NCBI GenBank assembly: GCA_964187785.1
Contig: OZ076409.1
Coordinates: forward strand, 48,672,001-48,736,000
Length of the DNA: 64,000 nucleotides
Source of the DNA: Amphiscolops sp. MND2022
Taxonomy: Eukaryota
Reading direction: 5' to 3'
The position numbers and the translations under genes were made by a program. The stretch's first letter is position 1; every line of letters begins with the position of its first letter. Under the pieces are notes generated by a model. That model worked only from the letters and a program-made list of their open reading frames with translations. It searched no databases and was not told the origin of the DNA. This document shows, piece by piece, positions 206 through 52,842 of this stretch.

Positions 206-3200
206 TGTGGCAGTTCAATGAGACATTGACGAAAGCACTGATCATGCGACAGATCTGCAGTCCCATCAAGACCTCAGTCTTTGACATCGCTCTGTGTACG
301 ACAGCCAAGGAATTTATCTGCCACATCGGCTTCCAGGCTTGTGTCGAGGAGTTCTGGACAAATCACCTCAACTACTCGCTCCTCAGGGTCCTCTTTGACA
401 TCTTTTTGCCCTTCTGGGCTGTGAGAGATATGCGCAAAGCAGAGGAAGCCAAAAGAGATATTTGGGCACCCAAGTCTAGGAAAGGGGCACTGGAAAATTT
501 TAGCTGAAAAGTATTTTCAAGAAAATTTGCAGGAAGTGTTATTTGGAATTAAACAAGTTTTGACAAGAAGTCATTAAACGGAATGTGAAATATCACTGGT
601 TATAAATTGTACGCTGACCAAGATGTAATAGCGACAACTTTTTAAAATTACCGCTCGTTTTTTTAACCTTTTTCTTGCAATCCAGGGCACATCTTGCGAG
701 CTCCTGAAAATGCATGAAAACTATGAGATGAATCTCGGATACTCGAAGCTATGCACGATTGTTATCAAGTTTTTCACTTGTTTTCGCATCGAGTGTTCAT
801 TTCGTAAGACAAAATTAAATGATTTATGATAAGTTTAAATGTTCAAGTGGAAAATGCATGACATACCATATGTATTTAGGAATCGTTATTCTTTTACAAA
901 TTCGAAGACGATTACAATTTTGAGTGCCTTTTGTATAATCAGGTCAACCAATTCGACCAAAACCCTGGCTTTTGCGGCCACAGAGTCAGTAGTGGCTTCA
1001 TTGGGCCTATCAAAGTCTAGTCACGACTCCAATATATATGCAGATGAAGTTATGTTGGATGTCATTGAGCTTGACCACAAAAATGACCCCAGTGGCCACA
1101 CCTCGAACACTTCCAGGCATTGATGTCTCCTATATTATTTTCTGAGATGTCTTTGAAGAAGATTTTAAAGAGAAGGTAAAAGGGAGCGTACTACAGAAGA
1201 GTAAAGCACGTGGAAATAAAAACGGAAACTGCATAAGTCAGCACCCACTCCATGCTCAAAATGTTCAAAGTATCTTAGAGCTTTAAAGAATTGTTTTTGA
1301 ATGATTGCTCGATCCAAAAGTTTTGAATTAATTCTTTATGTGGTCATTGTAAGAGTAACTCCTCGATGCAGTATGGAAGAAGTGATCAGTCATAAATGAT
1401 TATCATCAAGCATTTTTCGAAGTTAAATTGTCAATTTTTTATTGCAAGTTTCAATTTCATTCTAAGAAACAAATGTTGGTCTGGTTTCGCTATACATAAT
1501 GAAGGCAATGTTTTCAACAAATAAAGACTAACTTTCTACTTTCTCTACTCTTTAACAAACACTTGCGCGTCTCAGTAGAACTTTTGCGTTTACCTTTGAA
1601 ATTATCACGAACACCACTGAAAAATTAGTGACGTCATCTTTGAAATCTAGACAGAGCATGTTCAATCAGAGTAGACATCATTGCTACCAGGAAACCTTTC
1701 ATGACCTCAATGGCGACCTTTTACATGACCCCAGTGGTCAAATTTCTAATCCACCTTCTATCTTTTCTAATATTTCTACCTTACAATTCTTGGTGTCTCG
1801 CCTATTACTCGAAGTCTTGTCCCAGCGAGTACCCGGAATACATTATCTTGCTGTACAATATTTCATACCTTGTAGAGGCTTTAGTTCTAGTTCTACAATT
1901 CCGTGGTCCTGTGTTGATAAAGCTGCAGTTCTGGTTCCGGTGTGAATGGAATTACATCCAAGTTGCTTCTTCTCTTCTTGGTATTTTCGGATTCCTCAGC
2001 AAACTTTTCTGCCACAAGGTGAGATCCTAATTTTCTTGTTTATAGAATTGTTTTACCTACTTTTCAAATTTCAATTTTCAAGATCGTATGGAGGTGTTAA
2101 TTTGAAACTTGTTCTTGAGTTCTTATTTCAATAGTTCTTTACTATTTCAAGTTCTTGAATAATATAAGTTCTCAACTTTGTCATTTGGACTCTTTGAAGA
2201 CATTTTTCCGATTCTACAAAATGATGATAATGAATTCTTCTTTTCCTAGAGGTTTCAATATATCATTCCAGGAAGATGAAACAATATGCAACGCGAGTAT
2301 TCTGTACGGGCTTTCTGGCATTTTCGTGTGGATGAGGCTTCTGGCCTTCTACAGGTGCAGCCGGAGACTCGGCATCCTCTGGATCCTCATCCGCAAAATG
2401 ATGCTGGAATCACTCGGGTTCATGCTTATATTTGCCACCATCAGCCTCGCCGCTGGTATCTTCATACAGGTCGGAAACTCTTAATAAACGCCATAGTGCT
2501 TTTAAGAACTAACTGTTGTTTGTAACTTTCAAGTTGAATTCAGTTATTTTTAGCTGAAATGATAGGCGCCATTACGTCGTTTGAAACTTGAGTTGTTTGA
2601 AACCCGAAAACGAATAAAATTATTGAATAAAACATTTTTCGCATCAGTAATCTGTGTCCTAAAATTACAATCCAAATTTCAACCTGATTCTTGAACTTCT
2701 AGTGCTTCTAAACAATTCAATGATTCTAACTTTTTCCACTGCAGTTTCGATTTGTTGAATTTAGATAGTGATGGACATTTACGAGTACGAAGACCAGTTC
2801 TCAGGCAGTGTGAAGTGGCTGTGGCTGAGACCCTTCTTCATGTTCAGTGGGGAGAACTTTCTCAAACTGGTGGCTCACTCCCCCCAGGCAAACGAGCGCT
2901 TCATCACAATCTACGCCACCATATCCGTCATTTATTTCTTACTAGGCACGCCCTATTTATATTATTTTTCCAACATTATCCAGATTCGAAAGTTATTGGA
3001 AAGCAATTTTAATACTCAGTGCGTTTTTGTTTGCCTTTATCCAATTTATGCACAAAATAAAGAAACGAATTCAACGACGAAAAATTTAGATTTGTAGCGT
3101 ATGTATTTATGAAAGAATTTGATGATTTCCAAAAAGTGCTAAAATTTTTTAATGCCCTAGAATGCCCTTAAAAAATGCCGAAAATCTTCAACTCTTGGCT

Positions 3201-6200
3201 AGCAGTTCTAACAATTCTGTATAACTTTTGAGATTTTCGAATGACTTTTGCACAGGGATGGCAAATTTGCGGTATTCAGCTACGGTTGCTGTGATGGACG
3301 GAAATGAATAAAAATAATTATTTTTGAACTTGTTAAAATAAAAATACCTATTCTGGAGATAACTAAAACTAAGAGCGTTTATTTCAACAAATCGTCAGCC
3401 AAATAAATTCGAAAAAAAAAACAAATCGAGCTAATTTCTAGAAATAACTTTGTCAAGTACCTTGGGCTACTGACTCAAAATATCGAAGAGTCCATTAAAA
3501 AAGCCATGTGCCACGTTTTGGCCTGATTATGGATGGCTAATTTATGCTTTTGTTGATATCCGTTCTTCGTTGAGAATAAAAATGGTTATTTCAGCGAAAA
3601 AAATGATAAAACAATTTTTTCCACCCTGAAAATGAAATAATTTATTTTAAAGCAATAAAAATATTCGAATAAAATATTGAACAGCCCTTGTTGTTGATGT
3701 TGTATTTTTTCGGCTACATTTGGACATCTAAAATGTTTTCGCTAAATCAATTCAGGGCGGAAAATACGCCATACCATCCCTGGTTCTCAATATTCAACTT
3801 TACTGATGATTAACGTTTGATTAAAATATAGGTATATCAACTTTTTTTTATTTCGGAGCTGGAAACTATTAAATTTTTCCAGCAGTTAGTTGGACTCAAA
3901 ATTATTTTTACTTTGGTGAAATAAATTCAATGTGTTGTCAGGTAACGCCCTTATGCTGAATCTGCTGGTGGCTATATTCAGCGAGATCTTCAATAAAGTT
4001 TTCGTCAGGTTAACCTTTCTTCCATAATAAAAAGTCATTAAATAACTTATAAACTGACAGTTAAGGGTTATAAAGACACCTATAAAGATTCCACTGTCTA
4101 TAAACTTACCCATCTCTCCTGTTTTTTAGCGTCAACTAAATCACGAGCTGTCCGAGTTCCATTTCATGTTTGATTTCGTAGCTTTTATGCGAAAATATCA
4201 AATTTTCATTCCGAAGATGAAATATCAGCAACCTTGTTTTCCAAAAATGGAAGGAAAAATTTTTCAATTGAGAGTTACGATCGAGACATTAATACCCCAG
4301 TCGAAACTTCAGACATTTTCTACATACTTCCAAAAATTACTTGCAAGATCATACTGTGATAATCCTCTTGTTCGGATTCTTCATTTGAAAGCTCTATTTG
4401 GTCTAAGTCTGTTTCAGTTTCAAAGAAGGGTTTAGCAGGATGTTTCAAGTCCTTCATTTTAGATGCTCTAAGAGGATAGTCGTCGTTCTCGGAATCAGAG
4501 TTTTCGTTATTGGATGCATGAACTCCTATAGATTTACTCAATTTGGATCCCGATGGTTGATTTTCTCGCATTTCATTTATATCCGACATAGGATTAGTTA
4601 CTGTGGATGCACTCTTATTAGACTTTATCTCCTTTAGAATCGCTTCAAGTTTGTTTTCCATTTCTTCTCTCATCTTTTCAATCCTATCGTTGTTCTTTTG
4701 TTCCATGATTTGGGTCCAAACTTGCATTTCATTGTTTATTTGACTAGGTTCGGTTAACTGGTTTTCAGAGCTATTTTCACCTAAATTTCCTTGGGCAACA
4801 TTACTAATATCAATTAAAGCTTCATTACCTGTTTTAGGGGTTTCTATTTGTGTTACCTCCACTTCCCTGTCTGGGGACGGTGTCTCAAGTCTTCTAGACC
4901 TTCGGCTTCTTTAATTCCCATGTTATTCTCAAGTGAAAATGTTTTCTGGCTTTTGGGGAAGAATTTGATTTAGTCTTATATCCCAAAAGAGAAGCAATGT
5001 TGGATTTTTACAGAGGCGAAATCGCAGTTTTACAGTTATTCGAGAAAGTAACTGCACTTGATGAGGATAGGATTCTTAATGAATCTCTCTGATTGAAAAC
5101 TTCGAATAAAATCCAAAAACCATGACACTCTTTTTTATGGGAGTCATCATATGAAAATCGAGACAAAAATAGAATTACGTCCAATGACGTTATATTATAA
5201 AAATAGCACAACTACATGACATCATAAAAGTATGATTGGGAAAAGAAACTAATGAACCCTGGGAGTCTCTAAAGATGGCCTTCTTTCGTAATTGAAATGG
5301 TTTCTAGATAACATTATAACACGTGCTGGATTTATTTAACAAGTCCTGCGAGAACCGTATAGTGACGAGTATGCGTCACAACTGGTTCCGCAGGATGCCG
5401 TAAAAAGTTTTTATGAAAAGCGCATAATGCCGCATACTCGTTACACCTTGAAACGTGTAATGCCGCATAATGATACTAGTAAAAACGCATAATGACGAGT
5501 ATACGTCACACCTTAATCCGCATAGTACCGCATAATTGTACTAGCTATGAAGTAGATTACTATCTGATGACGAATTTTGACGCATCAGGACCTTTAGAAT
5601 ATTTGATTAGACAATGAGATAACTCAATGCATGATCAAAACAAGGGTTCCCAATGAAGTAATGAAGGTATGTTAGCACTATGATGAAGGTCCATTCACAA
5701 TAACCATATTATAAATATCATATTTACATGACTTTCGAGACTAAACAGCATTGAGTTTTAAAGCATCATATAAGACGGGTTCATCAGGGTTTTAGCAAGT
5801 TTGTTGAAATGAGTTTATCATTCGTTCCTCTTCAAAGTTGCGCCACGGAACCATCGCATCTTGATGGATGCGACAGTCCCGCATTTTTAAAGAGGAACAG
5901 GGCTGCTTCAAATCCATGGATAAATGCTCTTGATCTAATCGCTCTTTCTTTCACTGTTTCTCCCTCGTATTCAGTTGCCATGAGGTACTCGCCCAAAGTT
6001 TCCAGCGCAATTTGATCGTAGCATTTACCACATATGTCGCAGTAACCCGCCACATTTGACATGACAGTTGGCAACAGTCTCATGCTTTGTCTCTCTCTTG
6101 CAGGGATCATTATGATATTCGTGCTGTGGGTCACATGAAAGGGAAAGCCCAACTGCACCATAGGTTGAACTGTGATCTGTTGGTTCTCAATGGGAGCTCC

Positions 6201-9200
6201 CCTCATTGGGATGGGGAAGAACGCGGGTGACAAATTAAATCCTTGCACAGTACCCAGAGGACCTTGTGACGGAGCTATATCTCTTTGAAGCTCTTGTTCC
6301 ATGGGTTCACTGAGTTGCGTGTGCTGAAAATCGGATGTCTCTGGCCTGTAGTTAGGTGGGTAAGTGGGGGTTGGCCTTGGCAATATTCCGCCTGCACTGG
6401 GGTTCACTCTTTGGATAGGGGGAACCCTGGCGGTAGGTCGACCATAATTGTTTGTTTCCTCAGGAGGGGTATTACCCAGCGTCCAGGGGAACAAATTCCC
6501 TTCTTCAAACTCGCTATCTATGAATGAACTTGGGGAAATCATCGTATCTTCTTGCGGTTCCCCTAACAACTCCATCAGGTCTTGTTCTATCTGTGTCCCT
6601 GTGGCACTTACAGACTCATTCTGTTCTGCTGTATTGGCCGGATCCACATATAACGAAGCCAATGTTGAGCCCATGAATGCTGACATCAGGTTACTCCCGG
6701 TTGTATTAATTCGAAATCTTTCGTCAAGCTGAGCGATATCTCCGGGAGCCATTGAGAAACTATTTTCTGACTCGCTCGAAATGTGCACCACATCAGGTGA
6801 TATTGGGGAGTACAGAGAATTCATATCAGAATTGAATTGGAGTTTTTCCATTTTAGATTTGTAGAGAAACCACTGAGTATTTCAGATTTTCAAGAATTTT
6901 AGAAGGCAACTGATTTATGAGATTGCAAAGACCATATGGTGATCGGTTTTCTTCTTCCTTTTGATTTTGGATGAAAACCCGCGGAAAAGTTGCTTGTCAT
7001 GTTCTGATCCTGCAGACATCCTTATAAGGATTTCGTAGGTAGTAGATTTTCGGGTTTCATTCACAACGAGTAGTAAACAATTTCCATAAACGGTGTTTCA
7101 GTTAACGCCTTTACTGATCATCACCCATCATCAAAGCTTAAAGCTTTCTTCATACGTTTAAATGATAGATAAACAAATTCTTCCTAACTTCAGAACAACT
7201 AACCAGGAAATATGTTCATGGAAATATTCATTGAAACAACTCAAAAGTGAACTCATTTATTCTTACATGACTAAGTTTACATGAAAATGAAGGATGTCAA
7301 AGTGAATGTTTCATTTCAGTTTCACATCTTTACGGAATCAAAGTTTATTTTTAAGAAAAACATAGTTTAACCCCAGTCCCGCATTTGAAAAGTGCAGCAG
7401 GGTTTGTACTAAAGCAAATAGGTTTTCATGTTTGTTGGTAATTCCAAAAAACTTGTAAAATGTACCAGCAGTCTAGACTTCTAAAAACATATCAAAATCA
7501 TAAGAGCGCCGGTCTTGTATTGGCACATTATTAATATCACACATGTCTTGCCATTAAGAGTATGTAGTTTCTTCATCATATTACATAATACTATTCCATT
7601 CATACGCTTCTAATCATTGACGACATTAATCCACTCCTTTTAAATGCATTCAGCGAAAACCGCATGATGCCGAGTACGCGTCACTACTCAATCCGCATAC
7701 TGCCGCGTACTCGTCACTGCAATTCCGCATACTGCCGCGTACTCGTCACTGCAATTCCGCATACTGCTGCGTATTCGTCTTCAGTCGATCCTCATAATGC
7801 CGTCTACTCTAGCATATAAATCATTCCAATTTGGTTCATATTAACGCATTTGCATGTATTTTCACACCCAGATCCACAATGAGCCAATCAATCACGCTGG
7901 CAGACGTAATTGATATTGAATTAGCCAATCAGATTCCAGTATTTCTTTGCACTTTTGCGCAAACTAGCATCATTTGCTCTTTGCCTTTGCCTTGTTACGC
8001 CACGCCTTTGGTACTTCATCATTTGTCAAACAGTCATATAGTTAAAATAGTACATCAGTCCAGAGTTCACAAAACATTGCAGTTCAATCTACTCCTTTTA
8101 ACCTTCACCGATTTCAGCTTTATTTTCAGCCTTTTATACTTTGTTTGTGGAGTATATATTTTATTTCTTAACCACAATCCACTATCCCCTTCTTTGCATC
8201 ATTTACGGATGGAGGGAAAACAGGAACAGAGTTTATCTGGGGAGAAAGGGACGCAAGGGGAGCAATCACCTCGTCGTTACGGTGGAGGGAGGAATTATAA
8301 TCCATCTTTCTGGTCTGATCCAGGCAAGTCCAACTTTCAATATAATTCTAGTTTGGTTGATTCAGTGAAATTTCGGTTTGTTGAGTTGGCCATACTCATA
8401 CGTGAAATAGATCCTTGTTCATCGGATCAATTTCAGATCCTTTTGAAACGTTTCCGTTTCCAATTTCTAAGTGGCTTCCGGTTTTCATACATTTCCTGTC
8501 CCCGCGTCCGGTTTCAGTCAATTTAAGCGGCTTCCACTTGCATAATTTTGTTTTGTTAACTGGATCATTTGTTTCAGTTGAACTAGAGGCCAGTGAATTA
8601 CATTCAACTCAATCCCCGGTCAAGGTTTATACACCTCTGCAAACATCCTCTCCTAAATTTCCTGTCATCTCAGAAACACTTGAATCCCCAAGTATTCCTC
8701 CGCTTCAAATCCATGAAGAAATTAGTGTGGAAACTACAATCGAGAACACCCCCGTTGATACTCCAGTGACAACCGGGGCTAATCATCAAGAATACACAAT
8801 TGAAAATAACCGCACCACTACTCTAACCAACTCTGAGCAAGAAACGACCCCCACGGGAGACATGGAGAGCTCCTATGCAAACATTAGTCGTGAGATAGTG
8901 GAAAGTTTCATGGATTCAGAAACAGCTCAGGCCTTTTCTTCACATTATAGCCAATACCTACCTCCAGGAACTGGTTCTGGGCTTGAACATGCTATGACCA
9001 ACGTTACGGAGCAAAATGTACCACCCCATAATGAGCTTCCAGAACTGTCTCCAGCTGACGGAGGCAACTTCAGTAATGTTGTGATACAAGATGCTGCTCA
9101 TAGCAGTATTAACATCACTAGGAGGGAGATCCTTGCATTAACTAGAGTCCTGGAACGTATCCCACAAGAGTATGTCCTCAATGAAGAGACTAGAGAAGGT

Positions 9201-12200
9201 CAGGCTTTGACCCTAACCATTGTAAACGATACTGAAACTGCTCCCATCGTCGCCTCATCTAGTCAAGAGGAGGTTGGACAGCCTGTTTCGTCTGACGTTT
9301 ATCCAGATGAATTACAAGGAGGACACTCAATGGGAAGAGGAAAACGTCGCAGACCAAAATATTCTTTGACTGGAGCTATGCTTAAGAAACATCCATTTCT
9401 GGGATTCTCTGCCACTGGCCCCATCGACAAAGACAAAACACCACACAAATGGTGGTGTCGGGTATGCAGGGTAGAACTTTCTCTAATGAGTAGAGGTAGC
9501 CTTGAATTACTATCTCACTACAAAACCGAGTCTCATTTAGTGAAGGAGCACCGGATGCGCATGGAGATACCCGGTATGGCCCTCTTCGACGGAGAAGGAC
9601 GGGAAATCTATGGAATTTCACTGCAAGAAGCCAAGAAAAAAGCCAAAAACAATTACCCAATCGCTCCTCGACTCGACGTATGCCGGCCCCTTGTGGGACA
9701 AGAGTCTGTCCCAGATTTCAATGCTGCTACCAACCCCACCGATAAAGTACTGTCGCAGATCTGCATACTCGAGCACGGACTTCGCCATGGTGGGCACATC
9801 AGAAGCCTTACTGGCAACTATGATGAACTGTCTCGTCTTTCCTCCAGCAGCGGGATGTGTGAACAGAATTGGAGCCCACAGCGACTTTTTGTTAGTAGTT
9901 CTTTCTCAATTGACAGTATTCATTTTCTTTCTGAACCGAATTTCCTTCATAGAAATCCCTTTAATATAAGTTTATTTACTGTGACTAAGGAACATTTTGT
10001 TTGTCTCATATGGAATTTTCGTCTACATGTTCCGAGAATTGGTTGGATATTGTGTCACTGCGATCGCTACATCTGGCCATTACTCTTTCGCTTTGCAACA
10101 TACCCCAACAGCAACGTATCTAATCCTCAACTTCTGGTCGGGGAACGTATTACAGCACGTATGCTTGGGAAGTGGACCACGGGGAATGTTGATGCCAAGG
10201 AAAACCCTGATGACAGTTTCATCATTCATCAGCCTCTTTGAGGAAGCTCCATCTTGTGTTGCCCTCATTGACTTCAGTGAAAAGTTAAGTGAATGTCTAT
10301 CAAACTGTCTCCCAGGAAAACAGCAATCTTCCATTGTCAGTTCATATGGGCCAGAAGAGTTTGAGAAGAGCCTTGCGTTACCAACTTCTCAAATCATTGA
10401 GCGCCACGACTTTCGAACGATATTAGAATTTCTCTTAATGAAGTTGAGAACGGCTTTGGACCGAGATTGGTTAAAGAAGTTACCACTACTACACAAAGTA
10501 ATTAAAATACTATATTCGTTTTACTTAAACGTCTAAGTTTCCGAGGTATGATTTTCCTTTTCTTTTAGTGTGTAGTCCGCTTGGAGTATTCTCTTCAGGA
10601 TGCATCATCGATTATAGAGGCTTTATCCAATAATTGGGATCACGTGCTTGACCACCTTAATCAAGTCGCGAGGCTTCCTGCGTATCGCTTCCATATGCGT
10701 GAGGTTATTTGCTCTCCTTTACCATGTTTCCTTTGAGACCAAAAATACGTATTTTCCTTATCTTCATGTTATCCTTTCGTTTTAGCCAAGCACTTTGGAT
10801 GAATGTTTCCGCCTCGACACGGCTTACCTAGCCCGCCTCTTCGTCATCCGCTGTGTCCTAGACCATTGTTAGTTGTTTTGTATCCATACCACCTATTGTT
10901 GTAACAGTTTCTAAGTATTATCATTCCCAAAACTCAAATTCCTCTTTGTAGCAGACTTTTCATTTCTCCGAAAATCATTGAAGCACAATTAGTATATCTT
11001 TCCTTTCACGGTATATATAATGGTGCATAACCATTCTGCTGGTTGCGAATAGTGACGCATGTTCGCTGTATCTCGTTCCACATTGCTCTGTATTGCCATT
11101 CAGCTCATTCCGCATAATGGTGTATAATCATTCAACTGATTCCGCGTAGTGACGTATAGTCGCTACACCTCGTTCCGCATAGTGACGTATAGACATATAG
11201 CTGATTCCACATAGTGACGTATAGTCGATACACCTCGTTCCGCATAGCGACGTATAGTCATCCAGCTGATCCCGCATAGTGACGTATAGTCGCTACACCT
11301 CGTTCCGCATAGTGACGTATAATCATCCAGCTGAGTCCGCATAGTGATGTATAGTCGCTATACCTCGTTCCGCATAGTGACGTATAATCCTTGATTATTC
11401 AGCTTTAATGTGTCGGTTTCCACCGTAGTAATTCCGCACGTGTTTTATGGCGCTGATGCTTTCTTCAAATCAACTCTTGTTCTTTTCGTTTTGTGAAAAT
11501 GCAGGGCTATTGTATACTTAACTTATTTGTTGTTTTAGACAACTCAGCGTTCTCTGAAGTTCAGAAGAGTGTGGATTGTGGATTTCGCGCCTTCAGTCAG
11601 TTTACCATTTTTATTTACTCCCAGCTTCAGAGTATTTTACCGGATTCCTCGCTTGGGAATATATCGGATTGGGACAATTTTTTGCAGCTTGATTTAGATC
11701 AAGCAGACTTGCCATACAGAACCCCGGACGAGTATGTTCTCAACGAAGATTTTCACAAATTAGTTACTGCGAGTAAATTGCCACGTCCCAGCAAGTTCGT
11801 TGAACAGTGTATTTGCTTTGTTAAATCTTTTTGCGGACAACTATTGGAACATGGGAACATCAAATCTAGACTCATCAGAGGACTGTCAGCATTTGATCCT
11901 GCCGTTATCCTTGTTGGACCGGAAGCCAACTACACGGACGCTATTGAAAAACTGACAAGCCATTTCGTCTCTGTTAACTTGATTACTTCAAGTGTGAAAG
12001 TAAAGGTTGTTAGTCAGTACCGATCATTAGCAGTTAAATTGCGATCCGGGGATTCTCCAGAGTACGATGATTGGATTACGTTTCTGACTTCTCACTATGA
12101 GCTTCAATGTAGACCCGAACTGTTTCAATTGTTCAAGTATTCATGTTTATGTTTGCCTCCACGTGTTGTAATGCCTCCAGAATTTATTGTTCCAATGGCC

Positions 12201-15200
12201 GATTTAGAGTCTGGTGAGGAAAACTTTCAGTCTTGCATAAAAAGTCTTCAGATGTCGTACAGCACTATTCCACATGTTTCCAGCCTGTATCGGGATCCCA
12301 AATCAGTGAGTCGGGTTTTCCGCCTCCTGGGTCGTGGAGCCGATTTATTGGCAGATAGAAAATTTTCCATCTGGAATTTCATGAGGGGGAGTGCTACCCG
12401 TAGAACATCATTGTTAGGAAAACTTGAAACTGGTTATCGCAAGGCTGTTTTGCAACACGATAGGCCAATTGTTTCGTCGACTACAACAACCCCCAGTGTC
12501 AGCAGGACTGGAAGTGTGAACAGTTCTCCTTCACCTGATCCTAGTCTGAGCAGGATTAGTGTATCGCTTAATCGCTGTTCCAGTTCCTCAGTTGAAGATA
12601 CCGGCAAGAAATCCAACTCCAAGTTTGCGAAAGGCAAGAAAAACTAAATGTGAATTGCAGTGTATAATTGATTACTGTTTTCTTTCCATACTTTGTTTTG
12701 TTTGATGTCTGTTTTTGTTACGTATTTATCTTATAACAGGCTAGTCATTACTGATAAAAAACAGGCACTCTCCCTGATATTTATTAGAAGGAAAAGGGAA
12801 AAAAAGAAGATGTTTGTCTGTGATTTGTTCTAATATCTGTATGAGTCAGAGTAGTTTGGGTTGGGATTGGGGCGTAAGTTGTATTTTTCACCACGTGTGT
12901 TTATGGGTTTTAATTGCAATGGAGTATTTTGGGAGTTTTCTGGGGTTTTTTGGGTATCATCAACTGGTGAAATACTTGGTTCTTTTTGAGTTTTTTGGGA
13001 ATTTTCATCATCATCACTGATGTGTTGTGGAATTTCATTTTCGTGATTGTCGTAATTTTGATCTGGTTCAGTGGTCTGTTCCACTGGGCTCCCCCCACCA
13101 TTTTTTGAAGATTCAGGGGAGGGCGGGTGGTTATTTTCGGGGATTTGAATCGGAGCATATTCAGCATCGTCAGTGTCCTGAGAAAACTCGGACGGCCCGT
13201 CTTCAAACGGGTTCGTTCCAAAATTTGTGTTCCATGATTGGGCGTATAGATCATCATTTGCTATAGGCGTTTGATCATCTTTTTGCCAATCAGTTTCACG
13301 AACAAAAATATCTGCCAATGGGGCTTGTGGAATAAATTTCCTGAGCTGGATCCTGTGTAGTAATGCGTTTTGTTAGTGCCAAGTCTCCGGACAATATAAT
13401 TATTGTCAGGGAGTACTTTTTCCACTTTATATGGTCCACACCATCTGAATTCTCGGAATGGTATTTTTGTCGCTTGAGTATCAGCTTTTGGGTTGAGGAT
13501 GTAACAATAGTCCGTCGTTTCGAGCGGAGCTGCTTTTGCTTTCCTATCATAGTAGGCTTTGTATTTGAGATAAGATTGCATGATGTTCTTCTTAGTTTGA
13601 TCTAGAAGGATTTTCATACGTTTTTGGATTTCTTCAGCCACATCAGTCTGTGGTTGGTATCGTGGGTTAGGGTTATATCCAAGTTTGTAGTCTAGGATAT
13701 TATGTGGTATTCTACCATGGAAAACTCGTGAAGGCTCGCAACCGAGTGATGCATGATACGTTGTATTGTGGTTTAGAACTGCCAACGGTAGATACTTATG
13801 CCAGTTATTCCTGAATTCGCCTGTTGCAGCTTTCAGGTGTGTTTTGACTGAAGCATGGGTTCTCTCAAGGAGTCCTATCGTTTGAGCATGTTTCATTGTT
13901 GCGTGTTTAAGTTCAATTCCTAGCACTGCTGCAACTTCATGCGTTATTTGCGCATTGAATTGAGTGCCTAGATCTGTGATTATCGTTGTAGGAAGGTAAG
14001 TGTGTTTGCATAGTATGTCCATGATAACTCTTGACACCGTTGTTGCATTGATGCGAGTTACAGGGTAAGCAAACAAATATTTTGAGAAGACATCTATCGC
14101 CGTGATGATATGGTCATAGCCTCCGCTTGGGGGGAGGTTTGGCAAAATATCCATTTGCAGAATGTCCTCTGGCCCAAGATCCCATTCTGGGCAGTTTAAG
14201 AGTTCAGTTCTGAGAAGATCATTGTTAATGCGTTTTGTTTGGATACACACTTGGCAGTTACTGACCCCTTTTTTGATGTATTTAGCCATACATGGGTAGT
14301 AGTATTTTTGTCGGGCTTCTTGAATCATCTTGGTGATTCCTGGGTGGTTTGAATTGTGACCATGTAGGGCTTGAAGAAATTCTTCTAGCAGTTGGATCGG
14401 TAAGAGAATTTGGTAATGAGATATGGTTCCTGTGTCAGTGTAGTATTTTCGTGTAAGGACTTCCTGTTTTATTTTTATTCGGGTTATATTTTGTAAGTAG
14501 TGTTGGTATCTATAATCGGACGCCAATTCGTTTTCATCAAATGGGTTTCCTTCAAGTTTTGCTCTCAGATTTCTAAGGACGATGTCAATGTTCTGCTCGA
14601 GGCGAATTCTTGCATTATCCTTAAAGTATCCTGATGAGATTGAGATCAACCCCGATGTGGATTTATGAAATTGTTGTAGTTCAGAGACGTCAGTTTCTGG
14701 TTCATTGTGTGTTTCTGTTTGAGCTTGGTCTCGAATATTTTGTTTCTCTTCCCAAAGTTGATTTTCATCAATTTCATCTTCGGGTAGAATGTAAATTTGC
14801 TCTTCGTCTACAATTCCGGTTGATTGGATATTCACCTCAATAGCTTTGGTGTGAATGTCATTGCGGATTGTCATTTCTAGTTTTTCAGTTGGGTCAACTT
14901 CTGTTCTAGATAAGAAGTCAGCTGCTGTGTTCATTGATCCAGCAACATGAGCAATTACGAAATTATATTGTAAGACGTAATCGCACGCATTCCAGAGTGC
15001 TGGTGGAATCATTTTTGCTTGAAAAAAGCGAGTTACTGATCGATTGTCAGTGAAGACTATGACTGGGAAGGTACTTCCCCACATGAGGTGTCCAAACTCT
15101 AAAAATGCGAAATATATGGAAAGGAATTCTTTCGCATATATTGACATTTTAGTTTGTGTTGGATTAAAAGTTTTTGAACCAAATGCAATGGGTGCATACG

Positions 15201-18200
15201 TTTTTCGTTTAGATTGAAGTTTTTGGTTCGGGTCGTCTTCGATCATGATAGCATATCCTGCTGCTGTGAAACTTGCGTCGGACATGACTATAAGTTGTTT
15301 ATTTTTCAGTGGTTGTTTTAATGCTAACTGGCAGGAATTCTCCAGAAGTTTGTTGAGGTTGGTGAAGGCTTCTAGCAAGTTTGTGGGTACGTAGAATTTG
15401 GAGGTTTCTCTGAGGAGTTTGAAGAACGGAGAAAGTCGTTCTGAAAGGCGTGGTATGTAGTTTCGATAATAATTTAAAAATCCAATATACCTTTGTAACG
15501 CCTTCTTTGACTTGGGGAATCGGAGTTTTGATAGAAAATCTGTGACTTTGTCCGCTTGTGGGGCGACTCCGTCTGGTGTTATTGTACGCCCTAGGAAGTC
15601 AACTTGTTTGACTCCAAAGTGACATTTTGACATGGAGAGTTTTAGTCCTGCATTGCGAATGCATTCAAAGAGAGTTTTGATATTTATGCAGAGTTGTTTT
15701 GTGTCGTTTGCCGCTATGCCAATGTCATCGACATATTGGGCACATTGGTCAGCTTTAATTGCTCGATCTAGGTACTCTCTCATAAAGCTTGAAAATGCAG
15801 AAAGTGATCTAGAGAGGCCTTGAGCAAGACGACGATAGGCAAATGTTCTACTGGCAAAATTAAAGGCTAGCATTTGGATGGATTGGTAATCGGCCATCTT
15901 GAGGCAGTGATAAGCCTGTGAGCAATCCACCTTGCAGAACAGTTCCTTTCCTGCCATATGTTGTGCTGCATCTGATAAAGTGCTTACCGGGTGATTGTTA
16001 TTGGTGTAATCTTCAGTGATGAGGTTGTTAATCTTTCTGAGGTCTACTAAAAGTCTAAGACGTCCGTTGGGTTTGCGCTGTGCAAAAATTGGGCTGGCGT
16101 ATTTGGAAAAAAGTAAAGTTGTAATGATACCGTACTTGTGTAGAAGTGCGAGTTCTACTGTGATATCATCCTTGAGATTGATAGGAGTTGGCAGACTTTG
16201 GCTGTAAGCAGGTCTGTCATCATTCGGTGTTAATTTCACTTTGAATTCGCGGTTTATTCCTATATCGAAACGATGTCTGGCAAAGATGTCGTGAAATTCG
16301 ATGAGGATTTCCTCAATTTCTTGTCGTTCGGCTGGGCCGAGTGTTGTATCAGACCAGTCGAAGTTTGAAAGAAATGTTGTTCTTGAGGAATCGTTATCAT
16401 TTGGGTTTAGTTTCTCGAGTTCTTGTAGTTCAAGAAGCTCTTGATAGATGCGTTGCTGAATTGGGGTATATGTTGCAGGGTCGCCTGGTTCATCAGGAGT
16501 AGGGAACCAGTAGGTCTCCTGTTCGGGATTTTGTTGTGGTACTTTAAGAAGTTCATTTATGTGGACTTCTGTTGTTTCTTCGTGTTGAATCATAAACGAT
16601 AACAATGCAGGGTCCACTGGTTGTATATGTTTGATTTGTTCTGGTGTTAAAATCTTGAAATCTGCTAAATGGGTGTCCATTGTAATGGTGTATGGTAATT
16701 CAGAGAAGTTGATGATTTGATAGCCGATAGCATTGTTGTTGACAGTACTGAGCGATGCAGTGATGAAAATGCTATCGTGATTTTCATATTGTTGCGATGG
16801 GGTGACTATGCCGGTGGCATTATGATCCATCAAATGGGGCAATCTGCTTGCGATGGCGAGTGTTTCGCCTGGTTGTAAGGTGTAGGTATTTTCAGCAAAT
16901 AATGGTGTTGCTTGCCTTATTGATGTTTGTGTTTCTGGTTTAAGTTGCATTGATAGATAGGGGAAGGTTAGGATACCCTGTGTAACATCGAAAATTGCGT
17001 TATTTCTCCGGAGGAAACACAATCCGATTAGTGGGTTCGGTAGATTTTTCATGATGATGAGGTTTTCTTTTAACATGAAGTCAGCCACTTCAAATTCTAG
17101 TAGTACCGTACCGATGGGGACTTCTAGTTGTCCATTTGCCACCATAATTTGGAAGTTCGGTGGGGGACCGGTTTCTTTTATTGCCTCATTGGCGAGCAAT
17201 TTGATTTTGTTGAGGTCTTGTTCTGAGATTGCACTTGTGAGAGCTCCAGTATCAATGAGACCATCAAGCGTGAGTTTTTCGAAGTCCATCGGAATGTAGT
17301 ACATGTGGCGTTTTCGCTTCAGTGTTAAAGAGGTTGAAATTGGGAGATATGATAAGTTTCGTTCCTTATCAAATTGTATATGTTCTGTGAGGTCTTCATT
17401 TAGAAGAGGTTGTTTCTCATTATTGCAATAAGTTTTTATTGTTACGTGGTGTTTTGTTTTGTGTTGGGTTTCTGAGTTTGGGTCGGTTTCGGGGTTGTTA
17501 GATTGTTGAGGAAAGTAGTTGTCTGGTGCATCGTGTAAGAGTTCGTATAAGTCTTCAGGTTGAGTTTCCAGAGTTAGTTGTTGTATTTTTTCTGTTATTG
17601 AGTCGGTTTCACAGGCTGATGTTTTTGTAGGTTTTGGGCTCAACTGATGCTGCCAGTCATCAATTGAGTTTGGTTTATGTGGTGGTTTTGTGTAAAGGCG
17701 TGGCGTTTCTAGTTTAAATCCTTTGACGAGGATTGTTGATGTTCCAGTTTTGGTTTAATAGGTTTTTTGGCTTGTTTGTAGTCTTCAATGACTTTTTTCT
17801 GGGCTTCTGTAAGGTTCCATTTGGTTGGACGATTTTCCATATTGGCTCCGAAGTAGCAGTTTTCTTCGTCATGTCCTGGGGTATTGCAATTTTGACATTT
17901 TTCGGATTCCGGATCGTCCTCGAGTTTGCGCCGTTTAGCTAATTTGGGACAGTCAGTCATCATGTGGCCTGTCTCCTTGCAGTAACGGCATTGGTCGTTT
18001 TTGAGGGTTTTATCTGGTACTGTGTTTGGGGTTTGTTTTTTGGTTTTGTCAGTTTGTTTTTTGTTGATTTTTTCAGTATTTTGTTCCTTTTTAGTAACGG
18101 TCATTTGAGTTTTGACGAGAGTGTCGTCTGCTTCTAGGCCGTTAAGTTCCATTTCTCTTTCAAGGTGTTTGACAATTTGATCGTAAGTGCCATTCTCAAG

Positions 18201-21200
18201 ATAAGCTTGGTTAATGGACTTTTTGAGGTGGGGAGGCATTTTGGCATAGAGTAGGTTCTCTATCATTTGGTGGGCATTGTCCCCGAACGCTTTTTCAGCA
18301 CTTTCTTGGAGTTCTTCTAAGAAGTCCGGAAGTTTTTGGTTTTCTGGGTCGAAAAAGAGTCTGTTGAATCTATGTTTAGCAGATGCACTGGACTCTGGTT
18401 TCACATATTTTCGGCGAAAGACTTTTAAAATGTCTTCCAGCGTCGTGGTGGGAGTTCTTTGTATGTTTTTGAAGGTTTTAAGTGCCAAACCTCTGAGATG
18501 GGCGTGGAAATGGTTAATTTTCATTTCCTCTGTTAAGTTTGGTTGCATTCGTAATGTTGTATGGAACAAGTCCTCAAAATATTCGAATTTCTCGTTTTTC
18601 TCATTTTTCCCATTGAAGGTGAGTGTATTTTTGGGGTGAAAAAGTGATTGGGGAGAGTTTTTGTTGGCCAATTTCTCGATTGCAAGAGCAATTTGATTAA
18701 CTGGATCAAGTGGTTGTGTTATTGAGTTCGTTGTATTTTGGACTGCATGGGATCCAATTGTATCATTTAGCTTTTGTGAGCTCTGTCTATGGAGTTGTCG
18801 GTTGGCTCCTGTCACCATGTGATAATCCTCTTGTTCGGATTCTTCATTTGAAAGCTCTATTTGGTCTAAGTCTGTTTCAGTTTCAAAGAAGGGTTTAGCA
18901 GGATGTTTCAAGTCCTTCATTTTAGATGCTCTAAGAGGATAGTCGTCGTTCTCGGAATCAGAGTTTTCGTTATTGGATGCATGAACTCCTATAGATTTAC
19001 TCAATTTGGATCCCGATGGTTGATTTTCTCGCATTTCATTTATATCCGACCTAGGATTAGTTACTGTGGATGCACTCTTATTAGACTTTATCTCCTTTAG
19101 AATCGCTCCAAGTTTGTTTTCCATTTCTTCTCTCATCTTTTCAATCCTATCGTTGTTCTTTTGTTCCATGATTTGGGTCCAAACTTGCATTTCATTGTTT
19201 ATTTGACTAGGTTCGGTTAACTGGTTTTCAGAGCTATTTTCACCTAAATTTCCTTGGGCAACATTACTAATATCAATTAAAGCTTCATTACCTGTTTTAG
19301 GGGTTTCTATTTGTGTTACCTCCACTTCCCTGTCTGGGGACGGTGTCTCAAGTCTTCTAGACCTTCGGCTTCTTTTATTTCCCATGTTATTCTCAAGTGA
19401 AAATGTTTTCTGGCTTTTGGGGAAGAATTTGAATTAGTCTTATATCCCAAAAGAGAAGCAATGTTGGATTTTTACAGAGGCGAAATCGCAGTTTTACAGT
19501 TATTCGAGAAAGTAACTGCACTTGATGAGGATAGGATTCTTAATGAACCTCTCTGATTGAAAACTTCGAATAAAATCCAAAAACCATGACACTCCTTTTT
19601 ATGGGAGTCATCATATGAAAATCGAGACAAAAATAGAATTACGTCCAATGACGTTATATTATAAAAATAGCACAACTACATGACATCATAAAAGTATGAT
19701 TGGGAAAAGAAACTAATGAACCCTGGGAGTCTCTAAAGATGGCCTTCTTTCGTAATTGAAATGGTTTCTAGATAACATTATAACACGTGCTGGATTTATT
19801 TAACAAGTCCTGCGAGAACCGTATAGTGACGAGTATGCGTCACAACTGGTTCCGCAGGATGCCGTATAAAGTTTTTATGAAAAGCGCATAATGCCGCATA
19901 CTCGTTACACCTTGAAACGTGTAATGCCGCATAATGATACTAGTAAAAACGCATAATGACGAGTATACGTCACACCTTATTCCGCATAGTACCGCATAAT
20001 TGTACTAGCTATGAAGTAGATTACTATCTGATGACGAATTTTGACGCATCAGGACCTTTAGAATATTTGATTAGACAATGAGATAACTCAATGCATGATC
20101 AAAACAAGGGTTCCCAATGAAGTAATGAAGGTATGTTAGCACTATGATGAAGGTCCATTCACAATAACCATATTATAAACATCATATTTACATGACTTTC
20201 GAGACTAAACAGCATTGAGTTTTAAAGCATCATATAAGACGGGTTCATCAGGGTTTTAGCAAGTTTGTTGAAATGAGTTTATCTTTCGTTCCTCTTCAAA
20301 GTTGCGCCACGGAACCATCGCATCTTGATGGATGCGACACATACATATCTTGTAAGATATTTTGGACAAATTTTAGCAGACCACACGAAAACTACAAAGA
20401 TCTCACACGATCAGACAGAAAGTACCAAGATCTGGCAAGTCACTTGGCAGAATAATGCATTAAAATTCAAGATCTTGTTCAAAGAGTCTGTGAGTTTATG
20501 TAACGTCCACCTAGCAGAGTACATCATAGAAGTGGGTGCCTAGGGTGCTTAAACAGGAGACCGTTGTCTTACTACAGCCCTAGACATTAGTTCTTAATCC
20601 CGAAATGGTCTCCTAAAAGGAACTTTTTCAAACGTCAAAGGAGGCTCCTCAGTTAGAGCTCCGTGGCGACGTGCCGGCGCACTCAAAGTCCGGACACGTC
20701 CCACAAGCCTGTAAAAACGTATCCTAACGTTTCTGCGACTCTACATACCTCCGAGGTCCGAAAACAGGGGTTTAGCTAAAGTACATTTTAATTAGGAGAA
20801 TAACGTCTAAAATAACAAAAAAAGGGGTTAAAAACACCAAACATCTGCAAAGACCATAAATACGGTACAACAGACAGAGGAAACATCAGGCGTCAGTGTC
20901 AGCTAGTCTTTGACCTGCTAGGTGGCACATGCAAAATAGGCAAACTTCTGAGTTTCTTCATCTTTTGGGTCATTCTTCGGGTTCTGCTGGTAGTTGGGAC
21001 GTCTTCCGAGGGAGATGGCACCACACGGCGTTTTCGGGGATACTTCTATGGCGGGGTGTTCTCTCTCAGGCTGGGTGGGGGTGTTTTTTTGTGCGTTTTT
21101 TTGCTTCTTTTATGATTTTCGGTACCTGCCGGATCGGCCATTTTGAATCACACATTTCGAATTTTTCAACGAAATTTTGTAATTTTCGTTCGGCGACTGC

Positions 21201-27149: not shown

Positions 27150-28535
27150 TTCCCTTCTAATGACTTTTTGTTATAGTTCTTTTCAACGCAATAGAAAGAA
27201 TAGCTAACCTAAATTTTCTTCTTCTGTGACTTTGCACCTTCATTGAGGTGTTTCTCTTCTATTTTGCTCCTCGCCATTACTATGTGGTTGGTGATCTCTC
27301 CTTAAGCATCACGGCCCACATAATTTGAAGTTTTCGGTCTGTTCGGTGCTGAAATAGTCCTACCAATTAGACAAATATGTTTTCCGTTTTTAACGATATT
27401 CGTTAATTTGGTTGTCGGTTTTTTTCCGTGGTGTAACTCGAACTGTGCTACTTTTAATACAGTATGTATTGTAGCACGCGTTACGCGGAGAGCTCGATTT
27501 ACACTTTCGGTTAAACTTATTCCGTCCTCTAAATTTGCTCAATGTTTCGGCTTTTGCAAAGTTGTCTATATTCTTTGGAAGTGAATGCCTCCACTTTGTC
27601 GGATTCTATCTTTTCTGGTATTCCGGACAAATCCAAATTTTCTCGATAGGAAATTCATCACCTCTTTTGTTTCTGAGGTTTTGCAGTTTTTTACGGTAGG
27701 ATGTTTGCTAAATCTGTCTACCGCGATCAGTATTGGTACACCACTGTGTAATTGTTTGTTATGAAGTTTTCCGGTAAAATCAATTTGTTTTCCTGGCCGG
27801 GTACAGTTAGTTTTTCAAATTTTTTGTAGTGCTTTTTCGCTAATTGGCATTTAAGGCAATTACTTGATGCTAGGCATGCTGTGTAGTTCTTCACTTTACT
27901 CTCGATGTCTTGCTTCATGTCCGGCCACCAAAATATTTTCGCTTCAGACGTCAGTTTCGTGATGCCGAAGTCACCGGAATGCAAGCTGTCAAGCTGCCGA
28001 TTAGACCGCGTCTAAGGTCTATTGGAATGACGATTTGGTCGTCAACGAATTTAAGGTCACATCTGATAGAGAATTTGTCGAAAACTGCTCGGTTGCCCTC
28101 CAGATTCGTTTCTCTGTCTTTTCGGCGCATGCTGTTTGTAACCCGTGTCAGCTCCGTCTTAGAGATTAGAGTCTTTAAGGCCAACAAGAACTCGAACTCG
28201 GCTTTCTTGTTTGTAGTAAGTTTTCCGACGATATGGTTGATTTGCATACACTTGGCTTCTTTCCCGTCGGTTGTATTTCGTTAGATTGACAATTGGTAGA
28301 TTGTCGCCCGGCAAGATTATGCTATTTTCTTCAATTTCGGCAGCCTCTTCTTCTTCGATTTCTCCTCTTCCCGTTTGTATTCCGGTTCATCTTCTTCCTC
28401 TACTACTATCAGTTGATAGCTGCCTCCAATTCTGTTCGCGCTCTGGATCAGTTCCGCAACAATTTCGGCGATTTCCTCTCTGCTCGGTTTGTTCTGCCGG
28501 GATGGTGCAAATACCGTTCTTTGTGATTGGTGATC
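27150..28535 (-). pseudogene. Decayed Gypsy-type pol (integrase) fragment
   Basis: Frameshifted pieces: IVIPIDLRR, then HSGDFGITKLTSEAKIFWWPDMKQDIESKVKNYTACLA (remnant of the HHCC zinc domain). Truncated by the satellite. Confidence 0.8.
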
Positions 28536-31500: not shown

Positions 31501-33422
31501 CCTTTTAAAACATTTCAATCCAAGAAGATTGTCGAAACTTTGACAAAAATTGCGTAAAAACTTTGAAAATTGAAAAATTTTAGGGTTTTTGTCAATTTCG
31601 GTGTCAATTTGAGACGTTGTCACTTGAACAACTGTAATTAACTCCTCCAAACAGCCTATTGGACAACAAATTTTTTCATTGTTGAGCCTTTTCAACGTTC
31701 CAATCTATAAAATCCATTGAAATTTTGGAAAAAAAACTGCATAAAATCTCTGGAAATTCGAAAATTTCGAGATTTTTGTCATTTCGGTGTCAATTTGAGA
31801 CATTTTCATTCAAAACATTGCAACTATTTCTTTATTAAAGACTACTGGACAACGAATTGTTTCTTTGTTGACCCTTTAAAACATTTCAATCGAAGAAGAT
31901 TGTCGATACTCCAATAAAAAATGCGTGAAAACTTTGAAAACTGGAAATTTTGGGGTTTTTGTCATTTTCGTTGACAATTTAAGACATTTTCAAAACGAAA
32001 ACTGCAATAAACTCTTCAAAAAAGCCTACTGGACAACAGATTCTTTCCTTGTTGACTTTATTCAACGTTCCAATCCATAAAGTCTGTCAAGAATTTGGAA
32101 AAAAATGCATAAAATCTTTGAAATTTAGAAAATGGTTGGGTTTCTGTGATTTTCGGTGTCAATTTGAGAATTTTTCATAGAAAAACAGCAATTAGCTCTT
32201 CAGAGAAGCCTACTAGACAACGAAATGTTTCTCTTTGACCCTTTAAAACATTTCAATCCAAGAAGACTGTTGAAACCTTAACAAAAAATGCATAAAAACT
32301 TTGAAAATTGGAAAACTTTGGGTTTTTTGTCATTTTCGGTGTCAATTTGAGACATTGTCACTTGAAAAACTGTAAATAACACCTCAGAAAAACCAACTGG
32401 ACAACACATTTTTTCATTGTTGAGCCTTTTCAACGTTCCAATCTATAAAATTCATTGAAATTTTGGAAAAAACTGCATAAAATATTTGGAAATTCTTAAA
32501 TTTTGAGATTTTTGTCGTTTTTGGTGTCAATTTGAGACACTTTCATTCAGAACATTGCAACTATCTCTTCATTAAAGACTACTGGACAACGAATTGTTTC
32601 TTTGTTGACCCTTCAAAACATTTCAATCTAAGAAGAATGTCGAAACTTTAACAAAAATTGCGTAAAAATTTTGAAAATTGAAAAATTTTGGGGTTTTTGT
32701 CAATCTCGGTGTCAATTTGAGACGTTGTCACTTGAACAACTGTAATTAACTCGTCTAAAAAGTCTACTGGACAACACATTTTTTCATTGTTGAGCCTTTT
32801 CAACGTTCCAATCTATAAAATTCATTGAAATTTTGGAAAAAACTGCATAAAATATTTGGAAATTCTTAAATTTTGAGATTTTTGTCATTTTTGGTGTCAA
32901 TTTGAGACACTTTCATTCAGAACATTGCAACTATCTCTTCATTAAAGACTACTGGACAACGAATTGTTTCTTTGTTGACCCTTTAAAACATTTCAATCCA
33001 AGAAGATTGTCGAGACTTTAACAAAAATTGCGTAAAAACTTTAAAAATTGAAAAATTTTGGGGCTTTTGTCAATTTCGGTGTCAATTTGAGACGTTGTCA
33101 CTTGAACAACTGTAATTAACTCCTCTAAAAAGTCTACTGGACAACACATTTGTTCATTGTTGAGCCTTTTCAACGTTCCAATCTATAAAATCCATTGAAC
33201 TTTTGAAAAAAAAACTGCATAAAATCTCTGGAAATTCGAAAATTTCGAGATATTTGTCATTTCGGTGTCAATTTGAGTCATTTTCATTCAAAACATTGCA
33301 ATTATCTCTTTATCAAAGACTACTGGACAACGAATTGTTTCTTTGTTGACCCTTTAAAACATTTCAATCGAAGAAGATTGTCGATACTCCAATAAAAAAT
33401 GCGTGAAAACTTTGAAAACTGG
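28536..33422. repeat. Satellite array, ~185-bp monomers (about 26), with four monomer variants
   Basis: The anchor CTACT(G/A)GACAAC...GTTGACCCTTT recurs every ~183-187 bp. Confidence 0.95.
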
Positions 33423-42825: not shown

Positions 42826-45236
<2,411 letters not shown>

Positions 45237-52642: not shown

Positions 52643-52842
52643 NNNNNNNNNNNNNNNNNNNNNNNNNNNNNNNNNNNNNNNNNNNNNNNNNNNNNNNNNN
52701 NNNNNNNNNNNNNNNNNNNNNNNNNNNNNNNNNNNNNNNNNNNNNNNNNNNNNNNNNNNNNNNNNNNNNNNNNNNNNNNNNNNNNNNNNNNNNNNNNNNN
52801 NNNNNNNNNNNNNNNNNNNNNNNNNNNNNNNNNNNNNNNNNN
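52643..52842. other. Assembly gap (200 N)
   Basis: Run of N. Confidence 1.

Follow-up and report, generated by a model that had tools for sequence, protein, structure and literature searches.

The question raised by this locus is what an open reading frame (ORF) does that lies beside the 3′ long terminal repeat (LTR) of a retrotransposon and ends inside it. The locus belongs to Amphiscolops sp. MND2022 (GenBank assembly GCA_964187785.1, contig OZ076409.1, positions 48,672,001 to 48,736,000 of the forward strand), and the whole stretch of 64,000 nucleotides is called the window below. It contains a Ty3/gypsy retrotransposon, element 1, and at its right edge part of a second, element 2, each with such a frame, ORF-X. 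Going by comparison of its copies and relatives, ORF-X is a conserved accessory gene of a Ty3/gypsy lineage, and we present here the evidence that it is a gene, that its tail has a second role as nucleic acid, and that it is quite possibly a self-encoded transcriptional trans-regulator or anti-silencing factor expressed from an internal promoter.

Conservation of ORF-X

The two frames and the elements that carry them are located as follows.

5832-6851, minus strand, the same strand as gag-pol: ORF-X of element 1 (P0001), 339 aa, with its last 14 codons and stop within the 3′ LTR
60592-61353, minus strand: ORF-X of element 2 (P0002), 253 aa
4355-20339, minus strand: element 1, a complete 16-kb Ty3/gypsy element without env, recognized by paired LTRs, a target-site duplication, and Pfam matches of gag and pol
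4355-5875, minus strand: 3′ LTR of element 1, 1521 nt
18818-20339, minus strand: 5′ LTR of element 1, 1522 nt
59045-60626, minus strand: putative 3′ LTR of element 2, from its TGTCGC/GCGACA ends and its junction with an env-like gene; the partner LTR lies beyond the window

The C-terminal regions of P0001 and P0002 are identical at 24 of 68 residues (pair E 2e-12). Word-seeded searches returned 49 and 23 clusters, which contain 507 and 283 sequences. A profile search like the one proposed in an earlier note on this DNA, run here with a 20-sequence profile, returned 470 representatives of 50%-identity clusters at E≤0.001 (the best 150 of the 470 were listed). Altogether, 332 proteins were collected, 245 of which cover the domain; reduction below 70% identity left 80 representatives with a median pairwise identity of 0.30, and 25 non-redundant sequences were used for statistics on long members. 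The CxxC cysteines C271 and C274 are kept in 69/77 and 75/80 representatives, respectively. All family members read are without a name. Distant members lie partly on 1- to 4-kb contigs of the ENA and JGI collections, so the family reaches beyond the long contigs that hold close relatives. A second metagenome locus scan yielded two loci, L001 and L002, from 197 pattern matches; no relatives were found in viral contigs (two scans), prokaryote genomes, or the first metagenome scan.

The earlier description of the CxxC domain as conserved and unrecognized was borne out. Neither ORF-X protein has a significant Pfam match, and no Pfam family occurs in more than 2 of 114 members (best E 0.0038). The PDB sequence search gave a best E of 0.15, the Atlas feature search nothing significant, Foldseek against PDB and BFVD nothing at E≤0.001, and VIA-align best Z scores of 5.6 and 5.1. 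Such blank searches do not amount to a new fold or to a lack of relatives. Fused forms of 596 to 2000 aa were not found (weak evidence), and ORF-X has no similarity to the Gag of element 1.

The frame might conceivably have no function as a gene, if overlapping nucleic-acid signals or an antisense gene were what kept it open, and its last ~12 conserved codons are explained by the polypurine tract (PPT), the att site, and the hairpin treated below. The 54 ungapped domain codons upstream, however, show a protein-type pattern: in the four DNA copies used for codon tests (element 1, element 2, L001, and L002), identity is 0.55 to 0.67 at positions 1 and 2 and only 0.24 to 0.39 at position 3 (six pairs). 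The other five frames of the locus are closed, with 11 to 20 stops in each. Among the 120 cluster members listed, 84 come close to full length, a share biased by a collection made of called ORFs. These codon comparisons show ORF-X to be a protein-coding gene under selection and leave a non-functional frame highly improbable.

No Pfam match to env was found in element 1. Its LTRs have TG...CA ends and differ by 10 substitutions and 1 gap column, and CATAC, a 5-bp target-site duplication, stands at either end; the insertion is therefore young. Between pol and the 3′ LTR lie a cluster of antisense ORFs (8415-12647), ~1.4 kb of divergent intergenic DNA, and ORF-X. The layout of element 2 is the same, with plus-strand ORFs from 62397, ~1 kb of intergenic DNA, the ORF-X homologue, and the putative LTR. 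P0002 stops 19 residues before its close relatives (272 aa), so that the two ORFs end at about the same place partly by accident. No homology was seen between the LTR DNA of the two elements or between their antisense ORFs (for element 2, the part within the window). The env-like gene (57209-59044, minus strand; PF24664, Monjiviricetes fusion glycoprotein, E 3e-20) is in pieces, is split by the LTR of element 2, and belongs to a third element.

A hairpin beneath the last codons

Three overlapping features occupy the end of the frame.

5876-5888, minus strand: putative PPT adjoining the 3′ LTR, atypical and interrupted by pyrimidines, read as K-N-A-G codons; its role is assigned by position
5845-5882, minus strand: hairpin across the PPT/LTR junction of element 1, with a 16-bp stem that includes 7 nt of the PPT
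5852-5875 (element 1) and 60603-60626 (element 2), minus strand: conserved core of the hairpin, LTR nt 1-24, whose 3′ arm encodes C-D-G

The last codons of ORF-X span the putative plus-strand priming site and the LTR start in both elements, as had been proposed, the LTR of element 2 being the putative one. TGTCGCA likewise falls at one codon position in both, position 2 of the L/V codon in G-(L/V)-S (5875 and 60626), and does so in L001 and L002. The motif could be scored in 56 of the 80 representatives; in 9 of these the protein stops 11 to 15 residues past the LTR-start codon, and in 47 it continues for 20 to 77 residues, mostly 28 to 31; the overlap with the LTR is ~30 codons in most family frames and ~14 in the subfamily of element 1. 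A Pro-Gly-x-Leu-Pro-like tail ~25 to 30 codons into the LTR is conserved in P0060, P0188, P0201, P0210, and their relatives and does not occur in the subfamily of element 1.

LTR nt 1-24 fold as a hairpin in 4/4 DNA copies, with z scores of −5.09 (element 1), −2.59, −5.09, and −1.68; for the last, 14/200 shuffles are equally stable. Pairing is present in 97.5% of 40 cells, compared with 20 to 65% in slid registers. Two pairs are changed on both sides, in each case solely in element 1, and another two alternate between G-C and G-U. The pairing score is reached by 26/500 shuffles, four sequences being weak alone. Over the 12 codons of the PPT and LTR start, third positions are identical at 0.67, 0.92, and 0.67 among element 2, L001, and L002, although the ORF-X proteins of these copies are far apart, and at 0.33 to 0.50 in pairs with element 1; third positions of the upstream domain, unlike these, are near saturation. 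The protein sequences agree in part: the two residues facing the stem occur as A/A, V/T, G/P, and P/G, each of which permits both base pairs, and possible pairs number 131, whereas shuffles average 113 and reach at most 121 (76/80 representatives, 4 dropped for gaps; relatedness uncontrolled). Against such a protein-level signal, only 14/111 doubly changed rows permit both pairs and 104 permit one (237 scored rows), mainly because the subfamily of element 1 has a shorter stem. Base pairing and codon usage together show that the ORF-X tail overlies a conserved PPT/att hairpin. Rfam covariance models gave no match at E≤1 in 4300-7900.

This changes the meaning of the shared ending G(L/V)S...CDG, which had been taken for protein conservation and is largely explained by the PPT, att site, and hairpin. 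To pair with TGTCGCA, the 3′ arm needs the sequence TGY GAY R, whose in-frame reading is Cys-Asp, and C-D-G is thus a consequence of the att site. The third Cys of ORF-X is confounded with the hairpin, and C-D-G was rejected as independent evidence for a fourth zinc ligand.

The occurrence of G-U rather than A-C points to action on the plus strand. The hairpin would be a separate plus-strand cis signal, most likely one that defines or aids plus-strand priming at a weak PPT. A role for the protein at the same site is also conceivable: ORF-X could be an RNA-handling or replication cofactor (a Rev-, Tat-, or Vpr-like role) that binds the hairpin or genomic RNA for export, packaging, priming, or nuclear entry. 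The ORF is tied to the conserved hairpin in all four DNA copies, basic residues stand ahead of the dimer crossing described below, and the G-U pairs suggest plus-strand structure. Overlap on a template is not binding, however, the basic residues are few, and the acidic arm and promoter-like blocks fit transcription better, which makes a cofactor of this kind unlikely.

A second copy of the PPT region is present at 7373-7405 (minus strand), ~1.5 kb upstream of the 3′ PPT. It matches at 25/33 nt, 13 exact (0/1000 shuffles reach 25), has neither att site nor hairpin, holds a CCGCAT word, and is possibly a second plus-strand primer. Element 2 showed no second copy in the part that the window covers. 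A 22/33 match to the PPT region of element 2 at 2875-2907 (minus strand), with a G-run and then TG, may be a remnant of another element or due to chance.

Domain and acidic arm

Two parts of the protein bear on its function.

5889-6050, minus strand: conserved domain, residues 268-321, with CxxC (6030-6041) and two helices
6765-6791, minus strand: motif like a SUMO-interacting motif (SIM), P0001 residues 21-29, hydrophobic core VVHI followed by Ser/acidic residues; consensus per PMC4476178

AlphaFold2 modelled residues 232-339 as a CxxC turn and two helices (helix pLDDT ~85 to 97; ends low-confidence; mean 70.6; pTM 0.55). In the model of a full-length relative, these helices again stand out from a mostly low-confidence remainder, and the LTR-encoded tail forms a short pair of strands. 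The homodimer model scored 0.53, compared with 0.02 for the best control, with contacts that agree at least 63% between runs and a partner pLDDT of at least 58. The mark used for homodimers was reached by 21/30 solved pairs and 0/23 single chains in the microbial calibration and by 17/29 pairs and 0/30 single chains from eukaryotes, where just 1/7 without an older solved relative reached it; the calibration is small and mostly microbial, and the dimer model held no zinc. The closest predicted contacts are at the crossing A309-x-x-x-G313, whose A309 and G313 are kept in 71/80 and 73/80 representatives, and the CxxC residues are not among the named contacts. The model supports self-pairing of the CxxC and two-helix domain. 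A zinc finger or a Rad50-type zinc hook calls for four ligands around the metal, supplied by one chain or by two CxxC pairs; a Rad50 zinc-hook match was obtained for 1/114 members (E 0.023).

The N-termini are acidic, as the earlier note had read them, and the middles are Pro-rich: residues 1-110 of P0001 contain 17 D/E and 3 K/R, and prolines make up 22/130 of the middle. The N-terminal 100 residues have a net charge of −5 to −19 in 25/25 long members, and this arm is predicted to be mostly disordered. Within family 1, the N-terminal and middle blocks are 0.32 to 0.57 identical and the folded domain 0.83 to 0.84. Of the long members, 13/25 have the motif P-I-x-x-C...[TS]-P-x-S-P in the middle part, which the subfamily of element 1 lacks. 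The SIM-like motif of P0002 is at residues 40-50; that of P0001 has its core in the reversed orientation. A SIM-like core with an acidic flank, under loose patterns, occurs in 20/25 long members (shuffle mean 6.0, maximum 12). An identity as Env or env-like ORF3 was rejected: top 19-residue hydropathy is 0.98 (P0001) and 1.36 (P0002) and exceeds 1.6 in 2/25 long members, and there is no Pfam env match.

Such a protein could work away from element DNA, as a host-defence antagonist such as a dimeric decoy or adaptor that binds SUMO and sequesters or diverts silencing proteins, and the motif arrays described below would then belong to the antisense protein or host factors. The SIM-like acidic arm, the near-neutral domain, and the absence of a nuclear-localization motif are consistent with this, as is the zinc-finger lead of the antisense ORF (0.88 to 0.90); SUMO is required for piRNA-guided silencing in Drosophila (10.1101/533091). 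On the other side, the folded domain is the slowest-evolving part, unlike a fast-changing host interface, and the Atlas zinc-finger lead is below the reliable range. We judge this antagonist somewhat unlikely.

The same arm might instead bring SUMO-linked co-repressors to the element's own promoters, making ORF-X a repressor or copy-number limiter. Acidic arms usually activate, and subfamilies with intact ORF-X are abundant, one with identical proteins on up to 8 contigs; both points speak against repression, which we consider decidedly unlikely even though the same cis blocks would serve it and acidic-flank SIMs occur in PML and PIAS proteins (PMC4476178).

Motif blocks and a candidate internal promoter

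Because it lies 12 kb downstream of gag, ORF-X would need a subgenomic RNA. The following features are candidates for its control.

5481-5534, minus strand: LTR block (LTR nt 342-395) with CCGCATA and TGACG words, common to the region upstream of ORF-X
7656-7779, no strand assigned: candidate internal promoter within the divergent intergenic DNA, which holds a further copy of the LTR block (7656-7709) together with a 32-nt tandem array
7882-7931, no strand assigned: AGCCAATCA, similar to a CCAAT box and present twice; the window has 5 matches to RRCCAATCR, these two included
11104-11389, no strand assigned: third motif array, 33/65-nt units, with 8 CCGC[AG]T copies
60111-60138, minus strand: LTR copy of the block shared within element 2
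61645-61671, minus strand: block of element 2 ~290 to 320 nt upstream of ORF-X, common to its own LTR
8415-12647, plus strand: antisense ORFs 8415-10241, 9997-10536, and 11493-12647, with a BED/C2H2-like zinc-finger lead

In comparisons of 21 region pairs, each LTR was seen to share a block with the region upstream of its own ORF-X. The block of element 1 has 54 nt and scores 53 against a null maximum of 31, and that of element 2 has 27 to 28 nt and scores 33 against a null maximum of 29; LTR and upstream region compared across elements are at the null level. CCGC[AG]T lies within the shared blocks of both elements. Element 1 has 18 copies of CCGCATA (14 if a single LTR is counted), always on the plus strand and in the LTRs, the divergent region, and the array at 11.1 to 11.4 kb; the 43 kb outside both elements have one. 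Element 2 has single shared blocks and no arrays. L001 and L002 each carry one copy of the CCAAT-box-like sequence, a candidate NF-Y site, upstream of their ORF and oriented alike; element 2 has a looser site only.

The antisense ORF cluster is probably one gene, presumably spliced, and may be a captured DNA-transposon fragment. It has a CxxC...H segment that resembles BED/zf-C2H2_12 clusters (Atlas 0.88 to 0.93, named families at most 0.90, below the reliable range) and no Pfam match above the cut-off. Transposase-derived proteins are able to act as sequence-specific regulators (10.64898/2026.08.24.746577).

The shared LTR/upstream blocks, the CCAAT boxes, and the acidic SIM-like N-terminus lend indirect support to the idea of an internal promoter and a trans-regulator. 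The ORF-X transcript would start at an internal promoter, probably a divergent one, that lies between the antisense gene and ORF-X itself. The dimer of the protein would be recruited to element-specific motif blocks in the LTR and internal promoter, either by its own contact or by way of a partner, the antisense zinc-finger protein for instance, and there the acidic/SIM arm would activate transcription or relieve SUMO-dependent silencing in a Tas-like or VANC-like positive loop.

Several observations count against ORF-X as a regulator that binds these blocks. The domain is near neutral (11 D/E versus 10 K/R), its basic patch is small (K/R at 303, 306, and 307 in 55, 74, and 63 of 79), and the nuclear-localization motif K[KR]x[KR] is present in 0/25 long members. 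Conservation of the predicted interface is 0.51, versus 0.52 for the rest of the domain. The upstream regions of the four DNA copies hold no clear conserved block (5/200 shuffles score as high as the best pair and 20 to 192/200 as high as the others). Hosts commonly use TGACG and CCAAT as sites, and the motif blocks could be there for host factors or for the antisense zinc-finger protein, or could stem from local duplication; the antisense zinc-finger-like ORF is a candidate DNA binder as rival or partner. The strict SIM pattern is found in only 8/25 long members (shuffle mean 3.7; 11/500 shuffles as high), and the loose ones were picked after the sequences had been seen. SIM-like cores are common, as noted in the paper that gives the SIM consensus and the phospho-SIM idea (PMC4476178).

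Comparison with known systems

Foamy-virus Tas is an acidic activator that binds elements in the internal and LTR promoters (PMC517496). Tas (Bel1) and ORF-X are both acidic products of 3′ accessory genes, and in elements 1 and 2 alike the LTR has a block in common with the region upstream of ORF-X, a candidate counterpart of the paired Tas sites. The activation domain of Tas is C-terminal, whereas the acidic part of ORF-X is N-terminal and in an env-less Ty3/gypsy element. Pfam, PDB sequence, and fold searches listed no significant match, with no direct comparison to Tas made.

VANDALs are plant DNA transposons. Element 1 resembles the VANC/VANDAL system of Arabidopsis by element-specific, one-orientation motifs in terminal, intergenic, and intron-like non-coding DNA. 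The anti-silencing protein VANC acts on family-specific motifs that tandem repetition has arrayed in one orientation in non-coding regions (PMC5735166). Unlike VANC, to which no homology was detected, the motif binder here is only a candidate. A more far-reaching proposal, which we hold to be rather doubtful, is that an env-less Ty3/gypsy lineage independently evolved a complex-retrovirus circuit, in which ORF-X, with or without the antisense protein, would recognize the motif arrays, a phospho-SIM arm would divert SUMO silencing from the element's own family in a non-plant retrotransposon counterpart of VANC, and the hairpin would set priming.

The lentiviral nef frame crosses the PPT into the U3 region, and that of ORF-X does likewise; the parallel drawn in the earlier note with nef and tas thus stands for position next to the 3′ LTR. 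Nef carries an N-terminal myristoylation glycine, and here the parallel fails, Gly2 being present in 1/25 long members. Membership in the Nef family was rejected on this count and for want of a significant Pfam or PDB match.

Extra ORFs between pol and the 3′ LTR, in sense or antisense and some with their own promoter and nuclear products, are described for plant Grande, RIRE2, and Retand, rotifer ORF3 types, and planarian Burro (PMC7264820, PMC5408684, and PMC6431247). In the text available from these sources, such ORFs are env-like, esterase, exonuclease, coiled-coil, or antisense, and none has the ORF-X domain or enters the LTR. Stem-loops at the PPT/U3 border are reported in Sireviruses and HIV, with a call for systematic search (PMC3601003). 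In those cases the loop contains the PPT, whereas in ORF-X elements the att site and the adjoining LTR bases make up a stem that can reach over the PPT and is translated as well. A different, 5′ hairpin is treated in PMC5445492. No description of the ORF-X family was found in the literature searched; subscription papers, supplements, Repbase, and Dfam lay outside this search, and the two repeat libraries may annotate the ORF.

Other features of the window

The remaining genes and signals of element 1 are as follows.

13261-17643, minus strand: pol, in the order PR-RT-RNase H-IN, Ty3/gypsy type (Pfam)
17709-19385, minus strand: gag, with zinc knuckle and weak capsid matches (Pfam)
18804-18817, minus strand: primer-binding-site-like sequence, which begins TGG directly after the 5′ LTR, within the gag frame

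The gag frame starts at LTR nt 955 (window 18804-19385, minus strand) and crosses the primer-binding site, and ~188 of its codons are repeated in the 3′ LTR (ORF 4320-4862). In the LTR of element 2, a comparable ORF starts at LTR nt 1027. A 162-aa ORF (12830-13318, minus strand) overlaps the end of pol in a different frame, and the pol tail of this copy of element 1 appears interrupted. No tRNA genes were found within the window.

Outside the elements, a SET-domain ORF (44091-45236, plus strand; PF00856, E 2.9e-10) runs into a long trinucleotide repeat read as poly-Thr, and an ORF at 51144-52868 (plus strand) with a weak BRCT match is cut by a 200-N gap (52643-52842). Satellite-like arrays with units of ~185 nt lie at 28450-33560 and 46000-47400, and an inverted repeat at 47744-47916 has 82 nt, 94% complementary, with a 9-nt spacer.

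Significance

Self-encoded transcription regulators and protein counter-defences have received much study in both complex retroviruses and the DNA transposons of plants, but the literature searched describes none in this form for a gypsy element. The att-site hairpin is a concrete case of the PPT-border structures for which LTR surveys asked that a search be made, and the ending of ORF-X illustrates that constraint on nucleic acid may pass for conservation of a protein motif. The ORF-X family is large (470 clusters) and recently active, and its candidate target motifs vary from element to element, which makes it testable whether retrotransposons encode sequence-specific activators or anti-silencing proteins.

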